From: Candidatus Spyradenecus sp.
GTDB taxonomy: Bacteria > Verrucomicrobiota > Kiritimatiellia > RFP12 > DVOR01
DNA length: 64,000 nt
Assembly: GCA_045634445.1 (NCBI GenBank)
Contig: JAZRAG010000075.1
Location: 7,782 to 71,781, forward strand
Direction of reading: 5' to 3'
Program-made: the position numbers and the translations under genes
Notes under the pieces: model-generated
Told to the model about the DNA's origin: nothing
Databases searched by the model: none
The model's input: only the letters and a program-made list of their open reading frames with translations
Part shown: positions 7,672 through 61,826 of the stretch, one piece after another
How the letters are laid out: the number at the start of each line of letters is the position of its first letter
How positions within the stretch are numbered: the first letter of the stretch is position 1

Positions 7672-7684
7672 TATTGACTGCGTT

Positions 7685-7790
7685 TTAAAGAAGGCTTGTT
7701 TTGACCTTCAAAAGAACCTCTTTTGCACTTCAAAAGCATTTGTTTTCAATCTCAAAACAAGCTGTTTTCAAAAACCTTGATTTTAAAGGC
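7685..7790. repeat. copy of a dispersed intergenic palindromic repeat family (CAAAACAAGCY / RGCTTGTTTTG units)
   Basis: Shares exact 16-mer TTTTAAAGAAGGCTTG with 61584-61599 and unit structure with 29395-29462 and 46255-46350. Confidence 0.75.
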
Positions 7791-9193: not shown

Positions 9194-9760
9194 ATGCGTA
9201 CAACATTCCTCTTAACTCTACTTCTCGCAGTAGCATTTGTGTTCACGGGTTGCGCTCGTAAGTCTCGCAACGCAGCTGGCGGTGCTGACGACTTTGACAG
9301 CGCTGCAACGTTCGCTGGCGACGGTGCATTCATCGACCCCAACGGCGCAAACTTTGACCCCAATGATCCGAATGCAGGCGCTTTCGACACTGGTAAGTTT
9401 GAAGACACCCGCACTCGCGTGACAGATGCAGGCTTGGAAGCGCTCTACTTCTCCTTCGACTCTTACATGCTTCCTCCGGAAGAACTCGCTAAGGCAGAAG
9501 CTGCAGCTCAGTATCTCTTGAACAACCCCTCTCACGTGATGATCCTCGAAGGTCACTGCGACGAACGTGGTTCCAACGAATACAATCTCTCCCTCTCCGA
9601 ACAGCGTGCAATCGGCGTGCGTGACTACATGACCTCCTTGGGCATCGATGGCGCTCGCATTCAGACCCGTGCATTCGGTGAAGATAAGCCTGCTGTTCCT
9701 GGCACGGACGAATCTGCGCACAGCTTGAATCGTCGCGCGGAATTCGTTCCTTACAAGTAA
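9194..9760 (+). CDS. pal: peptidoglycan-associated lipoprotein (OmpA family)
   Basis: Lipobox VFTGC; C-terminal OmpA-like domain (EGHCDERGSNEYNLSLSEQRA...NRRAEFV). Confidence 0.85.
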   Translation: MRTTFLLTLLLAVAFVFTGCARKSRNAAGGADDFDSAATFAGDGAFIDPNGANFDPNDPNAGAFDTGKFEDTRTRVTDAGLEALYFSFDSYMLPPEELAKAEAAAQYLLNNPSHVMILEGHCDERGSNEYNLSLSEQRAIGVRDYMTSLGIDGARIQTRAFGEDKPAVPGTDESAHSLNRRAEFVPYK

Positions 9761-9864
9761 TTCCTTCGCGGACGTTCCGCTGACTAGCACCGCGCAGCCG
9801 TTTCCGACTGTAATAGGTCGTTGACGACGCGTGGTGCTCTCATCTTCTTAAGACGCTTAAAGCT

Positions 9865-10206
9865 ATGTTCTCCTTCCCGGAAATCCTCGTCATCCTTATT
9901 GTGGCGGTCATCGTATTGGGACCCAAACGATTGCCCGAAACAGCGCGCAAAATCGGGCGCTGGGTTGGCGTATTCAAACAGGCTGGAGACGAATTTAAGC
10001 GTCAACTGATGACGATGGATCGCATGGTAGATGATTCGCTCAATCGTGCGACATCAGATTTAGACCAATTAGAGCCAGAAGCGGTGAAAAGTTATGAAGA
10101 CGTGGTAGCTGATATTGCTGACACCTTCAATGCGCCCTTCACCGCTGCGCCAAGTGCCTCATCCCCTTCTGCGGAAACACCCGTTCAGGAGGGCGATAAA
10201 GCATGA
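9865..10206 (+). CDS. tatA: twin-arginine translocase subunit TatA/TatB family
   Basis: N-terminal TM helix + amphipathic helix (FSFPEILVILIVAVIVLGPKRLPE); acidic C-tail. Confidence 0.8.
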   Translation: MFSFPEILVILIVAVIVLGPKRLPETARKIGRWVGVFKQAGDEFKRQLMTMDRMVDDSLNRATSDLDQLEPEAVKSYEDVVADIADTFNAPFTAAPSASSPSAETPVQEGDKA

Positions 10207-13547: not shown

Positions 13548-13620
13548 TGTGATGGCCTAAAAATGAATTAAGGTTCTTTTGAGGTGCAATTGAAGCCTTT
13601 TGTGGAATTGAAAATAGCTT

Positions 13621-14298
13621 ATGTCGACGCGGAAAACAACCCTTATTAAAAAGTACACGCTTGCGGACTATGAAGCGATTCACGCTGCATTAGCGCAGGC
13701 GTATACGGAAGTACAAGCGCCGATCATGGATTTAATTGCCGCGCAGACGCATGACCCGTATCGTATCCTCGTTGGGACGATCCTCTCTGCGCGCACCAAA
13801 GACCAAACCACCGCAGCTGCTCTTGAACGTCTTTTCCCTGTGGCGCCAGACATGGCTGCGCTGGGCAAACTTACTGCTGCAGAACTTGAAAAACTCATTT
13901 ATCCCGTGGGCTTTTACCACACAAAGGCCGAACACTTAGCCGCTTTACCACACGCGTTGGAGGAGAAGTTTGGCGGTGTGATTCCGCACACTGTTGAAGA
14001 GTTAATCCAACTGCCCGGTGTCGGACGTAAAACGGCGAACCTTGTCGTCTCTTTGGCCTTTAATCTGCCTGCGATTTGCGTGGATACGCATGTGCATCGC
14101 ATTAACAATCGCCTTGGGATTGTGCGCACAAAGACGCCACTAGATACAGAGATGGCCTTGCGTAAATGTTTACCGCAACATCTCTGGAGCCCGTGGAATA
14201 TGATTTTCGTCTCCTTTGGGCAGACGCGTTGTAAGCCCATTGGCCCGAAGTGTGCAGGTTGTCCCATCGCCCATTATTGCAATGAGGTGCGCGCATGA
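13621..14298 (+). CDS. nth: endonuclease III (HhH-GPD DNA glycosylase, 4Fe-4S)
   Basis: HhH-GPD motif LPGVGRKTANLV, catalytic D, C-terminal Cx6CxxCx5C cluster. Confidence 0.9.
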   Translation: MSTRKTTLIKKYTLADYEAIHAALAQAYTEVQAPIMDLIAAQTHDPYRILVGTILSARTKDQTTAAALERLFPVAPDMAALGKLTAAELEKLIYPVGFYHTKAEHLAALPHALEEKFGGVIPHTVEELIQLPGVGRKTANLVVSLAFNLPAICVDTHVHRINNRLGIVRTKTPLDTEMALRKCLPQHLWSPWNMIFVSFGQTRCKPIGPKCAGCPIAHYCNEVRA

Positions 14299-27067: not shown

Positions 27068-27113
27068 AAGGCGTCCTTGGGTAGTTCCTAAGGATGCCTT
27101 ATTTATATTTTTT
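27068..27113 (+). terminator. intrinsic terminator (11-bp stem aaggcgtcctt/aaggatgcctt + T-run)
   Basis: Inverted repeat with one G-U position followed by atttatatttttt. Confidence 0.6.
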
Positions 27114-27129
27114 AGTTCTTCAATACTTT

Positions 27130-27405
27130 GTACTCTATTTTTCCGGCCGTAACTTATTCATTTTTAATAACTTATTTTGAATATTTTATGGCCGGCAATT
27201 TTAAGCTTAAAATCAGTACAATTTGTACTATTCATGCAAAATTTAAACAGTACAATTTTTTGGGGGCAAGATATTTTAAGGGAAAATTTCCGCTCGGGAA
27301 GAAATCTTAAATAGTACAATTTTTTGCACGGGACTTTTTAGACCTGTCTAGAAAACTTTAGAAAATAGTACGAAGGACCGAAGAAGTGAAACAATAGGGT
27401 TGTGC
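27130..27405. repeat. non-coding direct repeat copy A (~275 bp; contains AGTACAATTTGTACT palindrome 27215-27229 and a 67-bp internal duplication)
   Basis: Aligns base-for-base with 29118-29327 (e.g. GTAACTTATTCATTT, TTTTATGGC, AAAATCAGTACAAT, TATTCATGCAAAATTTAAACAGTACAATTTT, CTGTCTAGAAAACTTT); the two overlapping ORFs are in different frames. Confidence 0.85.
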
Positions 27406-27423: not shown

Positions 27424-27499
27424 CGGTCTCTAACTCAGTTGGTAGAGCACGACACTTTTAATGTTGGGGTCGCGGGTTCGTTCCCCGCGAGACCGGCCA
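27424..27499 (+). tRNA. tRNA-Lys (anticodon TTT)
   Basis: Cloverleaf: acceptor CGGTCTC/GAGACCG, D arm ACTCAGTTGGTAGAGC, anticodon loop CTTTTAA, T arm GCGGGTTCGTTCCCCGC, encoded CCA. Confidence 0.92.
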
Positions 27500-28729: not shown

Positions 28730-29117
28730 ACCATTTCCTTTCTTTTACTAGCAGTTTTCTTACTAAGCGAAAGGAACTCGTTTTATTTTACTGAGATAAA
28801 ATAAAGCGTGTTCTTCGCCCAATCATCTTCAGTAGAGGCCTACCACAGCCCGAGTGACGACAAGTGAACAGAGAACACGCTAGGAAATGAATCCTAACGC
28901 GCCTCCGCATTACAACTCGTTCACTCAGAGAAAAGTGGTAGTTTCTACTGAACAAATTGTTATGCGTTAACGCATCTTTTAGTACGTCTGAGAGGTGGCA
29001 AGAGGACGCATCACGTCATCGCCCCAATCAAACTATGTGATGGTAGTATAGACCTTTTTAGGATTTAATTCAATAAGAAATTATTGCCCATCACAAAGTA
29101 TTAATTCTTCATTATTC

Positions 29118-29327
29118 CGTACTATATTTGCCGAGTCGTAACTTATTCATTTACAATAACTTATCTTGAATATTTTATGGCAGGTAATTTTAGGCTTAAA
29201 ATCAGTACAATCAGTACTATTCATGCAAAATTTAAACAGTACAATTTTAGGCGGGGACTTTTTGGCCCTGTCTAGAAAACTTTGGAAAATAGTACGGAGG
29301 GCTGAAGAAATGAAACAAATGGGTTTG
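29118..29327. repeat. non-coding direct repeat copy B (~210 bp; AGTACAATCAGTACT palindrome 29203-29217)
   Basis: See copy A; same orientation, ~1.7 kb downstream, no tRNA after it. Confidence 0.85.
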
Positions 29328-29394: not shown

Positions 29395-29462
29395 GTTTTT
29401 GAAAACAAGCCTTTTTGCCTTTCAAAACAACCCTTTTTGATCTTGAAAAGAGGTTGTTTTGG
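29395..29462. repeat. copy of dispersed intergenic palindromic repeat family
   Basis: GAAAACAAGCCTTTTTG...CAAAACAACCCTTTTTGATCTTGAAAAGAGGTTGTTTTG imperfect palindrome. Confidence 0.7.
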
Positions 29463-29568
29463 GAGTCAATTTCAGCCTTTTCTAAAAACCGCTTAAAATC
29501 AAGCATTTAATGGCGCAGCGTTGAATGGATGCGCTCATGGTTGATGATGGGTGTAAAAGAGGGTTATG

Positions 29569-36923: not shown

Positions 36924-37571
36924 ATGGATTTTCTAAAGACGTTTTCTCTCTTCGCAACGGTTGCAGCAGTGATTTCTTTGACGGGTTGCCAGCAGGCAAA
37001 GACTGTAAAAACGCAAGAGCCTGTATCTGCTGGAGAGACTGCTACGCAGGCTCAGGATACGTTGGCTGCATGGCTCGCAGAGGCCAAGGAACCTACAGTG
37101 GTGGCATGTTCTGTTAGCCGTGATATAGCGCCGACGGCTGTGGATGGCTTTAATACGATTGCTGAGAAGGTTGCTGCGATTTATCAGGCTGTCTATGCCG
37201 AAGCTCAAGAAACGGCCACGGCACGTGATTCTGGCGATGTGATGGCCGATGCAGTGCTTGCAAAGGTCGCAGAGGGCGTTGCAAATGGCGAAACTTCTGT
37301 TGATTGGAAGTCTGCTGCACAAGATGCCGTGATCTCCAATTATCAGGAAACGGTGAAGGCGATTGAAGAACAGCGTAAGACTTTGGCAGATTATTCGGTT
37401 TCGTTGAAGTCTGAGCCCTCTGTTGCCGCAATCACGAATGGCGTTGAGAAGACCTCAGTTTTGATTAAGATGGGTAAGGATACCGCGGAATTGGGTCGTC
37501 AATTGAAGGCCGCAGGTGAAGGCGCTTCTGCGATTCGTATGCGTCGCATCTCTACCGCACTTGGAAAATAA
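36924..37571 (+). CDS. lipoprotein, helical, unknown function
   Basis: Signal + lipobox LTGC; Ala/Glu-rich. Confidence 0.5.
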   Translation: MDFLKTFSLFATVAAVISLTGCQQAKTVKTQEPVSAGETATQAQDTLAAWLAEAKEPTVVACSVSRDIAPTAVDGFNTIAEKVAAIYQAVYAEAQETATARDSGDVMADAVLAKVAEGVANGETSVDWKSAAQDAVISNYQETVKAIEEQRKTLADYSVSLKSEPSVAAITNGVEKTSVLIKMGKDTAELGRQLKAAGEGASAIRMRRISTALGK

Positions 37572-37728
37572 GCCCGTTTTGAATAAGGGTTGAATTAACC
37601 CTAAAAAGCACTGCTTTTAAAATTAAATAAGGGTTGAATCGCAAGGCAATTAAAGCCTTTTCATTTGGCCTTGCAAATCGCCTGTAAAAAGGTGTTTTAT
37701 CCTTAGTTTAAAAGGTCTGGGGGAATCA

Positions 37729-39444: not shown

Positions 39445-39467
39445 GCTTTAGCTGAAATGCATTTAGC

Positions 39468-39500
39468 AGGCATGGAGCAATCCGTGCCTGTTATTTTATA
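39468..39500 (+). terminator. intrinsic terminator after hup (aggcatgg/ccgtgcct + TTATTTTAT)
   Basis: 8-bp stem with one G-U, U-rich tail. Confidence 0.6.
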
Positions 39501-39979
39501 TTTAAATCAAATGGAAATATATTTTGAATAGCGAAAACAGAAATCAGTTACAATTTACCTGCAATTGGCATGTAGTATTTTGTTAAAGAAATCACGCATG
39601 TGTCGTTTATGCGGGTATTGAATAATGCGACACTCTAAAGATTAAAATTTAAAGTGTATTGGTTGTTAATGGACCATTATGAAATAGTTAAAGGAATCAG
39701 CTAATTAGAAATATTGACGCGTGGAATGTAAAAGTAATACTTGACGTGCACTTTTACTGACGCTTTGAATGTAAAAATGTTAGATTTTTGTTAGAAATAT
39801 TCATATAGATGTGTGAGTTGGCGATTAAAGAAAGTAATAAATCATTGAAAATATAAGGAGTTATTAACATCTTAATGGTTTAGAATAAAGTGATGTAAAA
39901 TAAAGAAAGATGTTGTAGTATTTACGATGAGTGTGTTAGAATACTTTCGAAATGAAGATGATTATGTGAAGAAGGCTGT

Positions 39980-46254: not shown

Positions 46255-46350
46255 AAAGGGTTTTTCAAAACAACCTGAATTGACATTCAAAAAGGCTTGT
46301 TTTGCTTTTCAATAAGGCTTGTTTTAAAACGCAAAAAGGCTTGTTTTGAA
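46255..46350. repeat. three tandem AAAAAGGCTTGTTTTG units plus CAAAACAACC unit; member of the dispersed intergenic repeat family
   Basis: ttcaaaaaggcttgttttgcttttcaataaggcttgttttaaaacgcaaaaaggcttgttttgaaaa. Confidence 0.75.
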
Positions 46351-46551
46351 AATGCAGTGTTTATAGATGTTTTTGGAAGAAGCATTTTGGGGCGGTAAAA
46401 CGTGTTAACCTTCTTCAAAACCTAGTGAAAAAGGAGTGGGATAAGCGTCTGTAGCGTCGCTTAGGGAAAAGGTGGATTTTCCATTAAATAAAAGGAAGAA
46501 AAACGGGGGTGCAACTTCTAGAAAAAAGTCACGTTAAAATACGCTAAAGTC

Positions 46552-51519: not shown

Positions 51520-54500
51520 ATGACACAATTTGTACGCTTTGCCATGATCGGCGCATTAGCCGCTGGGGCATCAGTATGCGCCATTGCGCAAGACGATGAC
51601 AGTCTTGACGCCCTCTTGGGGGACCTCGTAGAGGATGTCGCGATTGAAGAAGACGCTGTAGCTGTCGACGAAATCGCTGACGAACCTGCTGAAGAAGTCG
51701 CCGAAGTGCCTGCCGAAGAAGCAGTCGAAGAGGTCGCTGAAGAAGTTGCTGCCGTCGACGAAGATCCTATCGCAGATGAACCTGCAGAAGACGTCGCTGA
51801 AGTCCCCGCAGAAGAAGCGGTGGAAGAAGTTGCTGAAGTTGCAGATGAACCTGCTGAAGAGGTCGTGGAAGAAGTCGCCGAAGCAGACGAACCCGCAGCC
51901 GAAGTCGAAGAAGTGATCGCCGAAGCAGACGAGCCCGCAGAAGAAGTTGCGGAAGAAGTCGCTGAAGTTGAAGCTGACGCAGACGAAGCAGTCGAAGTGG
52001 TTGAAGTGGCAGACGAGCCCGCAGAAGAAGCTGTGGAAGAAGTCGCTGTCGCAGACATGGAAACTGAAATCAAAGAAATCGCGGAAGCTCCTGCAGACGA
52101 ACCCGCCGAAGGTTTGCTCGCTGGCGTCAACACCTCCGTTGAACCGATTGAAGAACTTACCGAAGAAGAACGCAAGTATAATGATCTTGCGCTCTTGATG
52201 GAACTCAAGAATCGTGGCTTGGATAACCATGCATATGCTTGCTTGGCTAAGGCTCGTGAATTGATGACCACGCCTCCGCAGCCTGGCAAGGCCTTCAATC
52301 AGTACGCTGATGCTATTAAGATGTATAAGGACGCTCAGGTTTACTTCCGTCAGCGCGAAGAAAACCTCCCTCTCCGCAATGAGTGTGACATCGGCATCCG
52401 CGAAGCTGAATATCGTCAGGCAAAGGTTCGCTTTGAAGAAGGTAACTTCGTTGAAGCTCTTGAAATGGCTCAGAATGTCCAGCTCAGCGGCCATCCTCAG
52501 GGCGCAGCTTTGATTGAAATCATTCAGGACGAAATGAATAAGCCGGTGGAAGTTCGCCCGAACCCCATCCTTCCTGAATACGCTAAGGAAGAATATCAGC
52601 GCAATCGTTTGGCCATTCAGGAACGTATGCGCCGTGCAACCGTTTACTTCCAGCTCGCTAAGTATCGTGAAGCAAACGATCAGTTGGAACTCATTCTCCG
52701 TGATGACCCCAACAATGAAGAAGCAATTAGCTTGCGTGCTCGCGTGAATCGTCGTCATGCAGATCGCAATCGTCAGTTGAAGTATTCCACACACGATGAA
52801 ATGATTAGCCAGGTGGAAGCTAACTGGACTCCCCTTGGTGCTCTCGCCCGCAACTCTGAAGAACTCTACGCTCCTGTAGAATCTAAGGGTGCCACCACGA
52901 AGGTGAACAAGGAGGGCGAAAAGGAAGAAGCAGTCGTGATGGCTAAGTTGCAGTACATCCGCTTGCCTGAATTCTCTATCCGTCCGCCGAGCACGCTCGC
53001 TGACGCAGTTGCGCTCTTCGCTGAACTCTCTAAGGATTACGACAAGCCCGAACTTCCTCCGGAAGAAAAGGGTATCGCTTTCGTGTTGAACATGGGCAAA
53101 AAGCCCGCGGCAGCTGCGGAAGAAACCGAAGATGATCCGTTCGCATCTGAATCGGAATCCTCCTCTGGCCTTCCTCCGATTGCCTCCATCTCCATGCCTT
53201 GGGTGACCCTCAAGGAAGCATTGGACATGGTTTGCGAAGTGACTGGCTCCAAGTACGTGATTAAGGGTAAAATCGTGATGATCGTTCCCGCAACACACGT
53301 TGACGGTATCATGGTCACGCGTTCCTATAACGTGATGGGCGGCTTGGTTGAAAAGCTCAGCCAAGTGAACAGTGAAATGGGTTCTTCTAGCGATGACAGC
53401 GATTGGGGTTCTGACTCCGAAAGTAGCTTCACTGCACCCTCTACCGACGCGGCATCCTTGAAGGCCTTCTTCACTGACCTCGGCGTGCCCTTTGATGGTG
53501 GTGCTCGAATCGCCTACTTGCCGACCATCGGTAAGCTCCGTGTTACAAATACTCCTGAAAACTTGGCAATCCTCGAAGGCGTCCTTGAAGACCTCAACGT
53601 GACTCCGTCTCAGATTGAAGTTGAAGCTCGCTTCGTTGAAGTAAGCCAGGAAGACTTGAACTCCCTCGGTTTTGAATGGGGCTTGAATGGTGACGTTGTT
53701 GGCACCATCGGTTCTGGTATCGACTGGGCTGACTCTGTGATTTCTGGCAATGCTAACCGTGGTCTCGCCGCAGGCGGTACTGGTGCAAATGGCAATGTCT
53801 TCCGCCCTGGACGCGGTGGCACGGGTGATGCAAACGTAGCTGTTCATGGTGGCTCTCTTAATAATGGTATGCGCTTCCTTGGCGATGGTAATGCATATGC
53901 AAATCGTATTAACCTCGCAGGTAGCACCATTGCTCCCGATGATACCTTTGCCAGCTTCTCCGCTGTCTTTGGTCGCGTGGACATGACGATGGTCCTCCAC
54001 ATGTTGGCTCAGCGCTCCGATACGGATATGCTCTCCAGCCCCAAGGTGCTCGCACGCCCTGGCCAGGAAGCACTCATCCGCGTGGTGACCGAACACATTT
54101 ATCCTACCGAATTCGATATTACCGAACTCGAAGAAGCTGAACAGAACTGGAACGGTAATAACGGTGGTAGCAGCCTTGCTGGAGGCTTGACCGGTGGCCT
54201 CATCGGTGGTAATAATGTGCAGATGAATGCACCGCCTGTGAAGTTCGCTGTTGAACCTCAGTCCTTCGAAAAGACGGACGTGGGTGTCTCCTTGCAGGTT
54301 GTCCCTGAACTTTCTCAGGAAGGTCAGATGATCAACATGTTGGTCAACCCCAAGGTTGTTGAATATCTCGGTGACTTTGACTACGGTATGAAGGTGCCTT
54401 ACATCCAGTACGGCATGACCGCAGGTGCAGTTTCTAGCGCTCAGGTTGAATACTACAACGTAGAAATGCCTCAGCCGAAGTTCCATGTTCGTGAAATCAA

Positions 54501-54786
54501 TACCTATATCTCTGTCTACAACGGCTCTACGGTTGTGATGGGTGGCTTGATTACCGAAACGCGTAAGTCCTTCGAAGATAAGGTTCCGTTCTTGGGTGAC
54601 CTTCCCTTCATTGGCTTCCTCTTCCGCTCTAAGGGCGAATTCAGCGAAAAGCGCAACCTCCTCGTCTTCCTTACCGCTCGTTTGGTTGACCCTGCAGGCC
54701 GCCCGTTGAAGACCGCTACCGATGGTCGTACAGGCAATGCTGCAATGGATACCGCAGCAGAAACCATGGACTCCATCGCAGAGTAA
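51520..54786 (+). CDS. pilQ: secretin (PilQ/GspD family), 1088 aa, with signal peptide, ~170-aa acidic repeat region, TPR-like helical region and Gly/Asn-rich insert
   Basis: C-terminal secretin domain (VPFLGDLPFIGFLFRSKGEFSEKRNLLVFLTARLVDPAGRP); signal MTQFVRFAMIGALAAGASVCAIAQ. Confidence 0.85.
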   Translation: MTQFVRFAMIGALAAGASVCAIAQDDDSLDALLGDLVEDVAIEEDAVAVDEIADEPAEEVAEVPAEEAVEEVAEEVAAVDEDPIADEPAEDVAEVPAEEAVEEVAEVADEPAEEVVEEVAEADEPAAEVEEVIAEADEPAEEVAEEVAEVEADADEAVEVVEVADEPAEEAVEEVAVADMETEIKEIAEAPADEPAEGLLAGVNTSVEPIEELTEEERKYNDLALLMELKNRGLDNHAYACLAKARELMTTPPQPGKAFNQYADAIKMYKDAQVYFRQREENLPLRNECDIGIREAEYRQAKVRFEEGNFVEALEMAQNVQLSGHPQGAALIEIIQDEMNKPVEVRPNPILPEYAKEEYQRNRLAIQERMRRATVYFQLAKYREANDQLELILRDDPNNEEAISLRARVNRRHADRNRQLKYSTHDEMISQVEANWTPLGALARNSEELYAPVESKGATTKVNKEGEKEEAVVMAKLQYIRLPEFSIRPPSTLADAVALFAELSKDYDKPELPPEEKGIAFVLNMGKKPAAAAEETEDDPFASESESSSGLPPIASISMPWVTLKEALDMVCEVTGSKYVIKGKIVMIVPATHVDGIMVTRSYNVMGGLVEKLSQVNSEMGSSSDDSDWGSDSESSFTAPSTDAASLKAFFTDLGVPFDGGARIAYLPTIGKLRVTNTPENLAILEGVLEDLNVTPSQIEVEARFVEVSQEDLNSLGFEWGLNGDVVGTIGSGIDWADSVISGNANRGLAAGGTGANGNVFRPGRGGTGDANVAVHGGSLNNGMRFLGDGNAYANRINLAGSTIAPDDTFASFSAVFGRVDMTMVLHMLAQRSDTDMLSSPKVLARPGQEALIRVVTEHIYPTEFDITELEEAEQNWNGNNGGSSLAGGLTGGLIGGNNVQMNAPPVKFAVEPQSFEKTDVGVSLQVVPELSQEGQMINMLVNPKVVEYLGDFDYGMKVPYIQYGMTAGAVSSAQVEYYNVEMPQPKFHVREINTYISVYNGSTVVMGGLITETRKSFEDKVPFLGDLPFIGFLFRSKGEFSEKRNLLVFLTARLVDPAGRPLKTATDGRTGNAAMDTAAETMDSIAE
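51640..52110 (+). repeat. degenerate in-frame tandem repeats encoding (A/V)EE(V/A)AE..DEPAEE units
   Basis: Repeated gaagaagtcgc / gacgaacctgc blocks; about 10 units of 14-18 codons. Confidence 0.7.
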
Positions 54787-61564: not shown

Positions 61565-61670
61565 AGGCCCTCTTTTAAAGAAGGCTTGAATTGTACTTCA
61601 AAACAACCCTTATTGAACGTCAAAAGAGGTTGTTTTCAACATCAAAACAACCTCTTTTCAAAACCGTTTT
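61565..61670. repeat. copy of dispersed intergenic repeat family including a perfect 15-bp/7-nt-loop hairpin (61623-61659)
   Basis: aaaagaggttgtttt-caacatc-aaaacaacctctttt; shares TTTTAAAGAAGGCTTG with 7683-7698. Confidence 0.8.
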
Positions 61671-61826
61671 CACCATCACCTCAAAACGCCTCAAAAAAGA
61701 CCTCCTCTAATCCTCGTAAAATGCCGAAATAACAGCGTTTTAGAAGATTTTTCAGATTCCTAAATAAAAGAAACAGCCGGACGTATTAACGGCCGACTGT
61801 TACTTTGTAAAGAGATGTGAAGCAGA

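Follow-up and report, generated by a model that had tools for sequence, protein, structure and literature searches.

Small dispersed intergenic arrays of phased 22-bp, A/T-framed modules in Candidatus Spyradenecus, and arrays of the same design in Prevotella

The closest described element to the arrays reported here is BrickBuilt of Porphyromonas gingivalis, a MITE-like element that carries a minisatellite of 23-nt units, from 1 to about 23 of them in each copy (Klein et al., 2015; PMC4596501). BrickBuilt has ~20 copies per genome in its Bacteroidota host, carries leader and tail segments that end in IS5-like terminal repeats (GAGACCTTTGCA), and was found by BLAST in P. gingivalis and P. gulae only (PMC4596501). 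The arrays are alike in concept, being dispersed, always intergenic and non-coding, built of spacer-free 22–23-nt tandem units whose number varies between strains, and without a match in Rfam. They nevertheless fail the defining features of BrickBuilt, as they keep an exact 22-bp period with 4–5 modules and have no leader or tail beyond ~10 nt, a distinction drawn from the description of BrickBuilt. The BrickBuilt/IS5-type terminal repeat occurs at chance level, with none near any copy.

REPs are single G+C-rich imperfect palindromes of Proteobacteria that fold as hairpins; within BIMEs their orientation alternates, and they occur together with a RAYT gene that has a REP on either side (Nunvar et al., 2010; PMC2817692). 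Like REPs and BIMEs, the arrays are short extragenic repeats in regularly spaced composite arrays of species-specific sequence, for which roles as non-autonomous mobile elements and as protein-binding sites are proposed. Unlike them, the arrays are A/T-framed, have no conserved hairpin and are often uniform in orientation. REP/BIME elements exceed 100 copies per genome; the arrays number six in the 64 kb and at least seven in one metagenome. A first, sequence-only reading of the locus had called the family REP/MITE-like; the REP part of this label was given up, since the G+C-rich hairpin is missing and no RAYT gene was seen in the 64 kb. BOX of Streptococcus pneumoniae is organised as boxA-boxB(n)-boxC, with modules of 45–59 bp of three kinds and a long stem-loop. 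It is likewise modular and dispersed between genes, one internal module being repeated a varying number of times, but the 22-bp A/T frame of the arrays is absent from it. The design of a CRISPR array was not found either, the modules being separated by 5-bp linkers only, without unique spacers. The literature searched contained no paper naming or describing these arrays, and we file them as what would be a new family within the known kind of small dispersed intergenic repeats, unusual in that frame and phase are common to two phyla.

The arrays and their modules in the window

The window, that is, the whole stretch of DNA analysed, comprises 64,000 nt from Candidatus Spyradenecus sp., in which four intergenic stretches had been noticed as look-alike copies of a ~100-bp palindrome. 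A repeat search of the window returned one family of four 96-nt copies at these loci, with 64–80% identity to the reference copy, and an nhmmer profile built from the four main copies found two further, decayed ones (Table 1). The proposed repeat family is thereby borne out at all four loci, with the correction to the limits that copy 2 reaches 29492 and copy 3 is inverted. The units quoted for it were also located, namely GGCTTGTTTT at 7693, 46294, 46316 and 46338, AAAACAAGCC at 29402, GGTTGTTTT at 29452 and 61628, and AAAACAACC at 29424, 46267, 61600 and 61644, as was the exact 16-mer TTTTAAAGAAGGCTTG common to copies 1 and 4, at 7683 and 61573.

Table 1. Array copies in the window and the hairpin of copy 4, with the genes beside them (E, nhmmer E-value)
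Feature	Position	Strand	Modules and match	Context
Array copy 1	7683–7778	+	four in-phase 17-bp frames at 7687, 7709, 7731, 7753; tail TTTTCAAAAACC; E = 1.4e-24	between ftsW/rodA-like gene (−, start 7671 or 7635) and tolB (+, start 7924), divergent
Array copy 2	29397–29492	+	good frames at 29401, 29423, 29445; degenerate fourth; tail CTAAAAACC; E = 6e-25	77 bp past cysK (−) stop codon, i.e. 3′ of cysK; preceded by duplicated segment 29101–29325
Array copy 3	46262–46357	− (inverted relative to the other three main copies)	frames at 46266, 46288, 46310, 46332; three with the same core orientation (GGCTTG)	divergent region between cysS (−, start 46030) and first gene of PilM/secretin operon (+, start 46633)
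Array copy 4	61573–61668	+	degenerate first module at 61577; frames at 61599, 61621, 61643, alternating cores; tail TTTTCAAAACC; E = 1.3e-24	169 bp upstream of gyrA start (61404, −); 159 bp past stop of conserved 628-aa ORF (−)
Decayed copy 5	37568–37666	−	modules of AAAATAAGCCCGTTTTG and GGGTTGAATT type; match 37573–37661, E = 7e-9	begins at stop codon of 215-aa ORF; ends 63 bp upstream of glycosyltransferase gene; flanking genes codirectional
Decayed copy 6	13566–13650	− (from the better nhmmer hits)	single intact module AAAACAACCCTTATT at 13633; E = 0.03–0.05	between alpha/beta-hydrolase gene (ends 13547) and HhH-GPD glycosylase gene (longest ORF starts 13621), codirectional
Perfect 15-bp inverted repeat, 7-nt loop	61622–61658	.	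AAAAGAGGTTGTTTT CAACATC AAAACAACCTCTTTT	modules 3 and 4 of copy 4

Tandem Repeats Finder gives a period of 22 at all four main loci, and each copy is therefore a tandem array of 22-bp modules instead of a ~100-bp palindrome, with a long hairpin only where neighbouring cores oppose. The module consists of a 17-bp frame, YAAAA-N7-TTTTR (C/T-AAAA-N7-TTTT-G/A), followed by a 5-bp linker, and when the four main copies are laid out in a 22-nt register each holds about four modules in exact 22-bp phase, to a total of ~95–110 bp. In the window the N7 core reads CAASCYY or, in reverse complement, RRGSTTG, and its orientation changes between modules. Alignment of the four copies, with copy 3 reversed, shows that all share TTTT at the left edge and the tail TTTTSAAAA(A)CC at the right, and the arrays end in a polar manner: the final module invariably has the CAAAAC-AAS-CC orientation and is followed by SAAAA. 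One N7 core is common to all copies within a genome, and other lineages have other cores. The perfect 15-bp stem with a 7-nt loop that had been described in copy 4 is present, and it arises from the opposite core orientation of the neighbouring modules 3 and 4; it is specific to copy 4 and no feature of the family.

As the conserved frame consists mostly of A and T runs, one could ask whether the copies are a chance resemblance of A/T-rich intergenic DNA, a reading to which we give next to no credence. A pattern for one module has 12 matches in the window against 0.16 expected, all within the repeat loci, and one for two modules has 6 against 0.00; frame pairs exactly 22 bp apart number 10 against 0.03 in composition-matched shuffles, while spacings of 21 and 23 bp yield no pair and a spacing of 44 bp yields 6. 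These counts and phased pairs, together with nhmmer E-values as low as 6e-25, refute the chance reading, and the G+C-containing cores common to several copies also stand against it. The sequence-only reading had allowed that a wider search might find only its own copies, with no consensus beyond low-complexity A/T runs; the extra window copies and at least seven same-core copies in a metagenome show more than that.

All six copies, the decayed ones included, are intergenic, as had been claimed for the original four, in a window of which long ORFs leave ~11% uncovered (P about 2e-6); copy 6 may overlap the start of the HhH-GPD glycosylase gene. The flanking genes are those named earlier, except that copy 2 lies 3′ of cysK and so does not occupy a promoter position. 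In copies 1 and 3 the array tail points towards the start of a gene, in copies 2 and 4 towards the end of one, and such inconsistent position and polarity argue against a simple regulon of promoter sites; the neighbours of the window copies share no functional theme. No sigma-70-type promoter was found in the region of copy 4. The promoter geometry of Bacteroidota is −33/−7, and by our own reasoning the 22-bp spacing of TTTG motifs does not suit it, so that promoters of this type were rejected as well.

Some other repeats of the window were also noticed. A segment of ~290 bp is duplicated at 27112–27401 and 29101–29325 with 84–86% identity; after the first copy comes a tRNA gene (27424–27496), after the second comes repeat copy 2 and no tRNA gene. 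Directly to the right of copy 4, at 61676–61704, is a run of phased A-tracts, CCTCAAAACGCCTCAAAAAAGACC, with the highest curvature of the window in the Trifonov model (peak at 61690). The secretin gene at 51520–54786 encodes, near the N-terminus of its PilQ-like product, an extended acidic region of tandem repeats in which Glu, Ala and Val predominate (51631–52078; periods of 12–96 nt).

Arrays of the same design in Prevotella and in metagenomes

In a scan of a genome collection, where many matches were ordinary terminator-like hairpins and were set aside, about half of the matches listed are arrays of the same design in Prevotella genomes. The carriers among the matches listed are UMGS899, ERR1190646-bin.12, Map_64_021, P. 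disiens, Leyella stercorea and Segatella copri, and no Kiritimatiellia genome is among them. The Prevotella arrays are many and dispersed, almost always with five modules (105 bp) in exact 22-bp phase and one polarity, and their ends are sharp (TTTT/CAAAAGGACTCC...CCTTTTG/AAAA, with slashes at the array ends). Their cores are GGACTCC or CGAGTCC in one species group; those of P. disiens are CAGGCTC. In the reading CAAAAC-RRG-YYY-TTTTG, comparison of the consensus sequences gives agreement between the modules of Prevotella and those of Kiritimatiellia at 14 of 17 positions. Since this frame and period are found in Prevotella genomes too, the architecture extends beyond the Kiritimatiellia-like lineage, and of the lineage specificity suggested for the element only that of the core sequence stands.

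Between Prevotella genomes that are 94–97% identical, arrays are found at orthologous sites with changed numbers of modules (6 vs 4 and 5 vs 3), and this stability at 3–6% nucleotide divergence suits an element kept by the host as well as it suits an old insertion. In these orthologous arrays substitutions affect 7/350 positions of the frame, 8/245 of the core and 9/140 of the linker, with 86/2078 in the flanks (frame vs linker, p = 0.02; frame vs flank, p = 0.07), which gives a weak hint that the frame may be under constraint or homogenisation, in statistics that are partly biased because the frame itself served to detect the arrays. In 21/29 cases, with orthologous loci counted repeatedly, the tail side is turned to a gene start, a bias that weakens if each locus is counted once. 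At two loci a pair of arrays brackets a whole operon, one array upstream and one downstream (L024, 579–683 and 5313–5417; L120, 282–364 and 6369–6495); the bracketed operons, clpP-clpX-recQ and one of three peptidases, are ordinary operons and not transposon cargo.

Nearer relatives of the window were found through its genes. The closest full-length homologues of its gyrA are 89–90% identical, and a partial one from a JGI metagenome (P0061) is 98% identical over 75% of the protein; the homologues carry the names Kiritimatiellia, 'Candidatus Spyradenecus' and Lentisphaeraceae, which points to an uncultured gut bacterium of Kiritimatiellia type as the source of the window. An exact look-up of the gyrA and cysK products gave no match. 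Contig L001, with a gyrA protein 89% identical, keeps the synteny around gyrA and has no array in the upstream region, of which only ~80 bp beside the gyrA start are conserved with the window. At the site of copy 5, a contig with a glycosyltransferase protein 90% identical (L209) has only a partly alignable relic. A further relative (L210/L211), in which this protein is 77% identical, has a four-module array of its own (TAAAAAGGRCYRTTTTG plus linker, core AGGRCYR) downstream of an HU-like gene, and the window has no array at the matching site. Another related contig carries an array of GAAAAAGGGCTRAATTG modules with the core AGGGCTR. The compared loci show that array sites have been gained or lost between related Kiritimatiellia-like lineages, though none of the comparisons yielded a filled and an empty site with clean boundaries. 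Two side observations belong to these sites. In the gyrA upstream region of L001, at 9600–9900, where the window has copy 4, an unrelated short repeat, TGCCTATCTC, occurs at least six times. The place in the window that corresponds to the L210/L211 array, between the HU-like and lpxL-like genes, is an unusually long, very A/T-rich intergenic region of 535 bp (39445–39979). The position of the HU-like gene beside the L210 array was treated as a coincidence.

At least seven further copies with the window's own core (CAAGCC or CAACC) are among the matches listed from a metagenome pattern scan followed by a profile search, each on a separate short contig of the metagenome RHMF01, and the family is thus multi-copy beyond the window. 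These copies have the polar tail of the window type and 3–6 modules, and adjoin rmlC/D, folE, uvrC, LemA and RRM-protein genes. The modules of copy 4 alternate in orientation, those of copy 3 and of the arrays in L141 and L162 mostly run one way, and those of Prevotella are uniform. On other metagenome contigs, of ~40% G+C, the arrays have a different core in every module and the frame alone is kept.

Two variants deserve separate mention. The six-module arrays of L091 (2916–3042) and L187 (9968–10094), in 22-bp phase with GYGCCAC/GTGGCRC cores, have left and right halves that are inverted and are thus truly palindromic. In the uncultured Bacteroidetes MAG G04_MAG_00060 a near-identical segment of ~90 bp lies on six contigs (L013, L031, L032, L056, L061 and L067), on several of them near the contig end, and holds the hairpin TGAAAAGAGGTTGTTTTCGAATTGAAAACAACCTCTTTT with GAGGTTG/CAACCTC half-units as in window copy 4.

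Proposed whole-array spread and the competing explanations

We favor the explanation that the arrays are small, non-coding, non-autonomous, modular dispersed repeats that spread as whole arrays, and give it about an even chance of being right. A putative enzyme would copy whole arrays into new intergenic sites, and copy-and-paste spread of this kind would explain why the dispersed loci of one genome share a core. The number of modules would then drift through replication slippage, selection would remove insertions within genes, and effects on neighbouring genes would be a by-product, different from site to site. The arrays have the MITE trait of being small, non-coding and present in multiple dispersed copies that are found or missing between relatives. 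The MITE-like label of the sequence-only reading fails on the ends of the element: these are TTTT...AAAA half-frames only, distinct terminal inverted repeats matching a parent IS are lacking, and no IS ending in this way was seen. Inspection of the flanks revealed no direct repeat as a target-site duplication, but the A/T ends would mask a short one. In the 64-kb window and the RHMF01 contigs no mobilising gene was found associated with the arrays, and the adjoining genes are housekeeping genes. An IS481-like gene (L178) was considered as the owner of an RHMF01 array and rejected as too far away, since it ends ~365 bp from it. Tn7 TnsB and Mu end sites are 22-bp sites; they were set aside, because their consensus sequences are unlike the frame and the arrays bracket housekeeping operons and not transposon cargo. 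Viral contigs contained no true arrays, and plasmid and phage collections gave no blastn match, in a search whose low-complexity filter may hide weak ones; a phage or plasmid origin was rejected on these results.

The frame recurs every two helical turns and its A4 and T4 tracts alternate, which points to action as double-stranded DNA, and the module would probably work in this form and not as RNA or as a single-stranded hairpin. The palindromic frame would be a putative docking site for a dimeric DNA-binding protein, repeated so that all sites come to lie on one face of the helix, and the alternation of A4 and T4 tracts every 11 bp would add intrinsic curvature. On this model the phased A/T frame would probably serve two ends, to dock a DNA-binding protein and to curve the DNA. 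Within the window the predicted curvature of the arrays lies at the 98.6th–99.9th percentile with Trifonov parameters and at the 95.6th–99.8th with AA-wedge parameters, as calculated by a custom wedge-model script with unreferenced parameters; in neither model are the arrays the strongest predicted peaks in the window.

The protein at such sites could be a host factor instead of a mobilising enzyme, and this is the main difference between the favored explanation and a tentative one that we rank as rather unlikely, with spread by an enzyme retaining its even chance. Here the arrays would be a binding platform kept by the host, with reiterated sites for a nucleoid-associated or insulator-like protein common to gut Bacteroidota and Kiritimatiellia, of which 4–5 dimers would sit on the YAAAA-N7-TTTTR frames along one face of a ~100-bp curved segment and organise DNA at the borders of transcription units. 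The sequence-only reading had already offered a reiterated binding site for a global factor, and we keep this as a live alternative. Frame, 22-bp phase and module number (4–5) are the same in two phyla despite different cores, mixed-core arrays keep the frame alone, the frame changes less than the linker in orthologous Prevotella arrays, and arrays persist at orthologous sites there and bracket whole operons at two loci, all of which, with the high predicted curvature, would fit a host platform. The tendency of the Prevotella tail side to face gene starts (21/29 before orthologous loci are deduplicated) is of the same kind, but is weaker once these loci are counted singly. A reader of the frame alone would, however, leave the uniform cores across the dispersed loci of one genome unexplained; sites turn over between related Kiritimatiellia lineages, the window copies keep no consistent distance or polarity to genes, and no candidate protein has been identified. 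The same anatomy recalls plasmid iterons, which are 4–7 contiguous ~22-bp direct repeats bound by a Rep initiator (RK2, P1, R6K, pPS10), and the arrays could be taken for Rep-bound sites that serve replication, partition or copy control in a replicon, either integrated or resident. In the length of the module, its strict 22-bp phase and the number of modules the arrays do match known iteron clusters, and the contiguous ~22-bp direct repeats place their sites on one helix face in both. An iteron cluster, though, is confined to one locus, next to a rep gene and to an unwinding region rich in A/T, whereas the arrays occupy six chromosomal loci (ftsW, tolB, cysK, cysS, gyrA) in 64 kb of housekeeping chromosome, none adjoining a rep or par gene, have many dispersed chromosomal copies in Prevotella and match nothing in plasmid, phage or viral-contig collections. 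This distribution largely refutes the iteron reading, which we hold to be scarcely tenable.

It is also quite improbable, in our judgement, that the arrays act at the RNA level, as transcribed bidirectional intrinsic terminators or mRNA 3′ stabilisers, through A-tract/stem/U-tract hairpins formed by opposed neighbouring modules. The folding of copies 2 and 4 is indeed much stronger than that of shuffled controls (z = −4.8 and −4.0), copies 2, 5 and 6 lie just 3′ of genes, and in many Bacteroidota inverted half-unit pairs of this composition form ordinary terminator-like hairpins. The folding of copy 3 is no better than chance (z = −0.25 and −1.5), however, and modules have a single orientation in several metagenome copies and essentially all Prevotella arrays. 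Conservation of RNA structure, a check that had been proposed for the repeat, came out negative, as RNAalifold returned no conserved base pair in 11 copies; a conserved hairpin was rejected on this result and on z-scores that vary from −4.8 to −0.25 between copies. The N7 cores of the window family are not self-complementary, and the arms of the frame are A4/T4. The arrays do not have the G+C-rich stem and U run 3′ of a gene that make an intrinsic terminator; a terminator scan gave only a marginal site, at the edge of copy 4, where the gene upstream has a G+C-rich inverted repeat of its own just past its stop codon (61771–61800, read from the sequence and not in the scan output). Copies 1 and 3, moreover, lie between divergent genes, and no array matched Rfam, which recognised only two tRNAs in the window, neither at an array. 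A CsrA-type GGA sponge was dropped as a candidate, as the window cores contain no GGA.

Significance of the arrays

Repeats of the REP/BIME, BOX, Correia and BrickBuilt types shape transcription, mRNA stability and genome rearrangement. To our knowledge there is hardly any work on small dispersed repeats in Kiritimatiellia and other uncultured gut lineages, and those of Prevotella, a dominant genus of the human gut and rumen, are poorly described. As their module number varies, the arrays would be useful for strain typing, and they are likely break points of short-read assemblies. The 22-bp phase and A/T frame that are shared while the cores are genome-specific suggest two connected possibilities: a shared protein may read the frame, or the element may move between phyla. 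We also consider, as an unlikely possibility, that the frame array is the recognition platform of an undescribed DNA-organising or mobilising protein, shared or horizontally exchanged between gut/rumen Prevotella and Kiritimatiellia (PVC group). If this were true, the arrays would represent a system of chromosomal architecture or insulation that spans phyla, or else mobile elements of a new type, built wholly of enzyme-binding modules.
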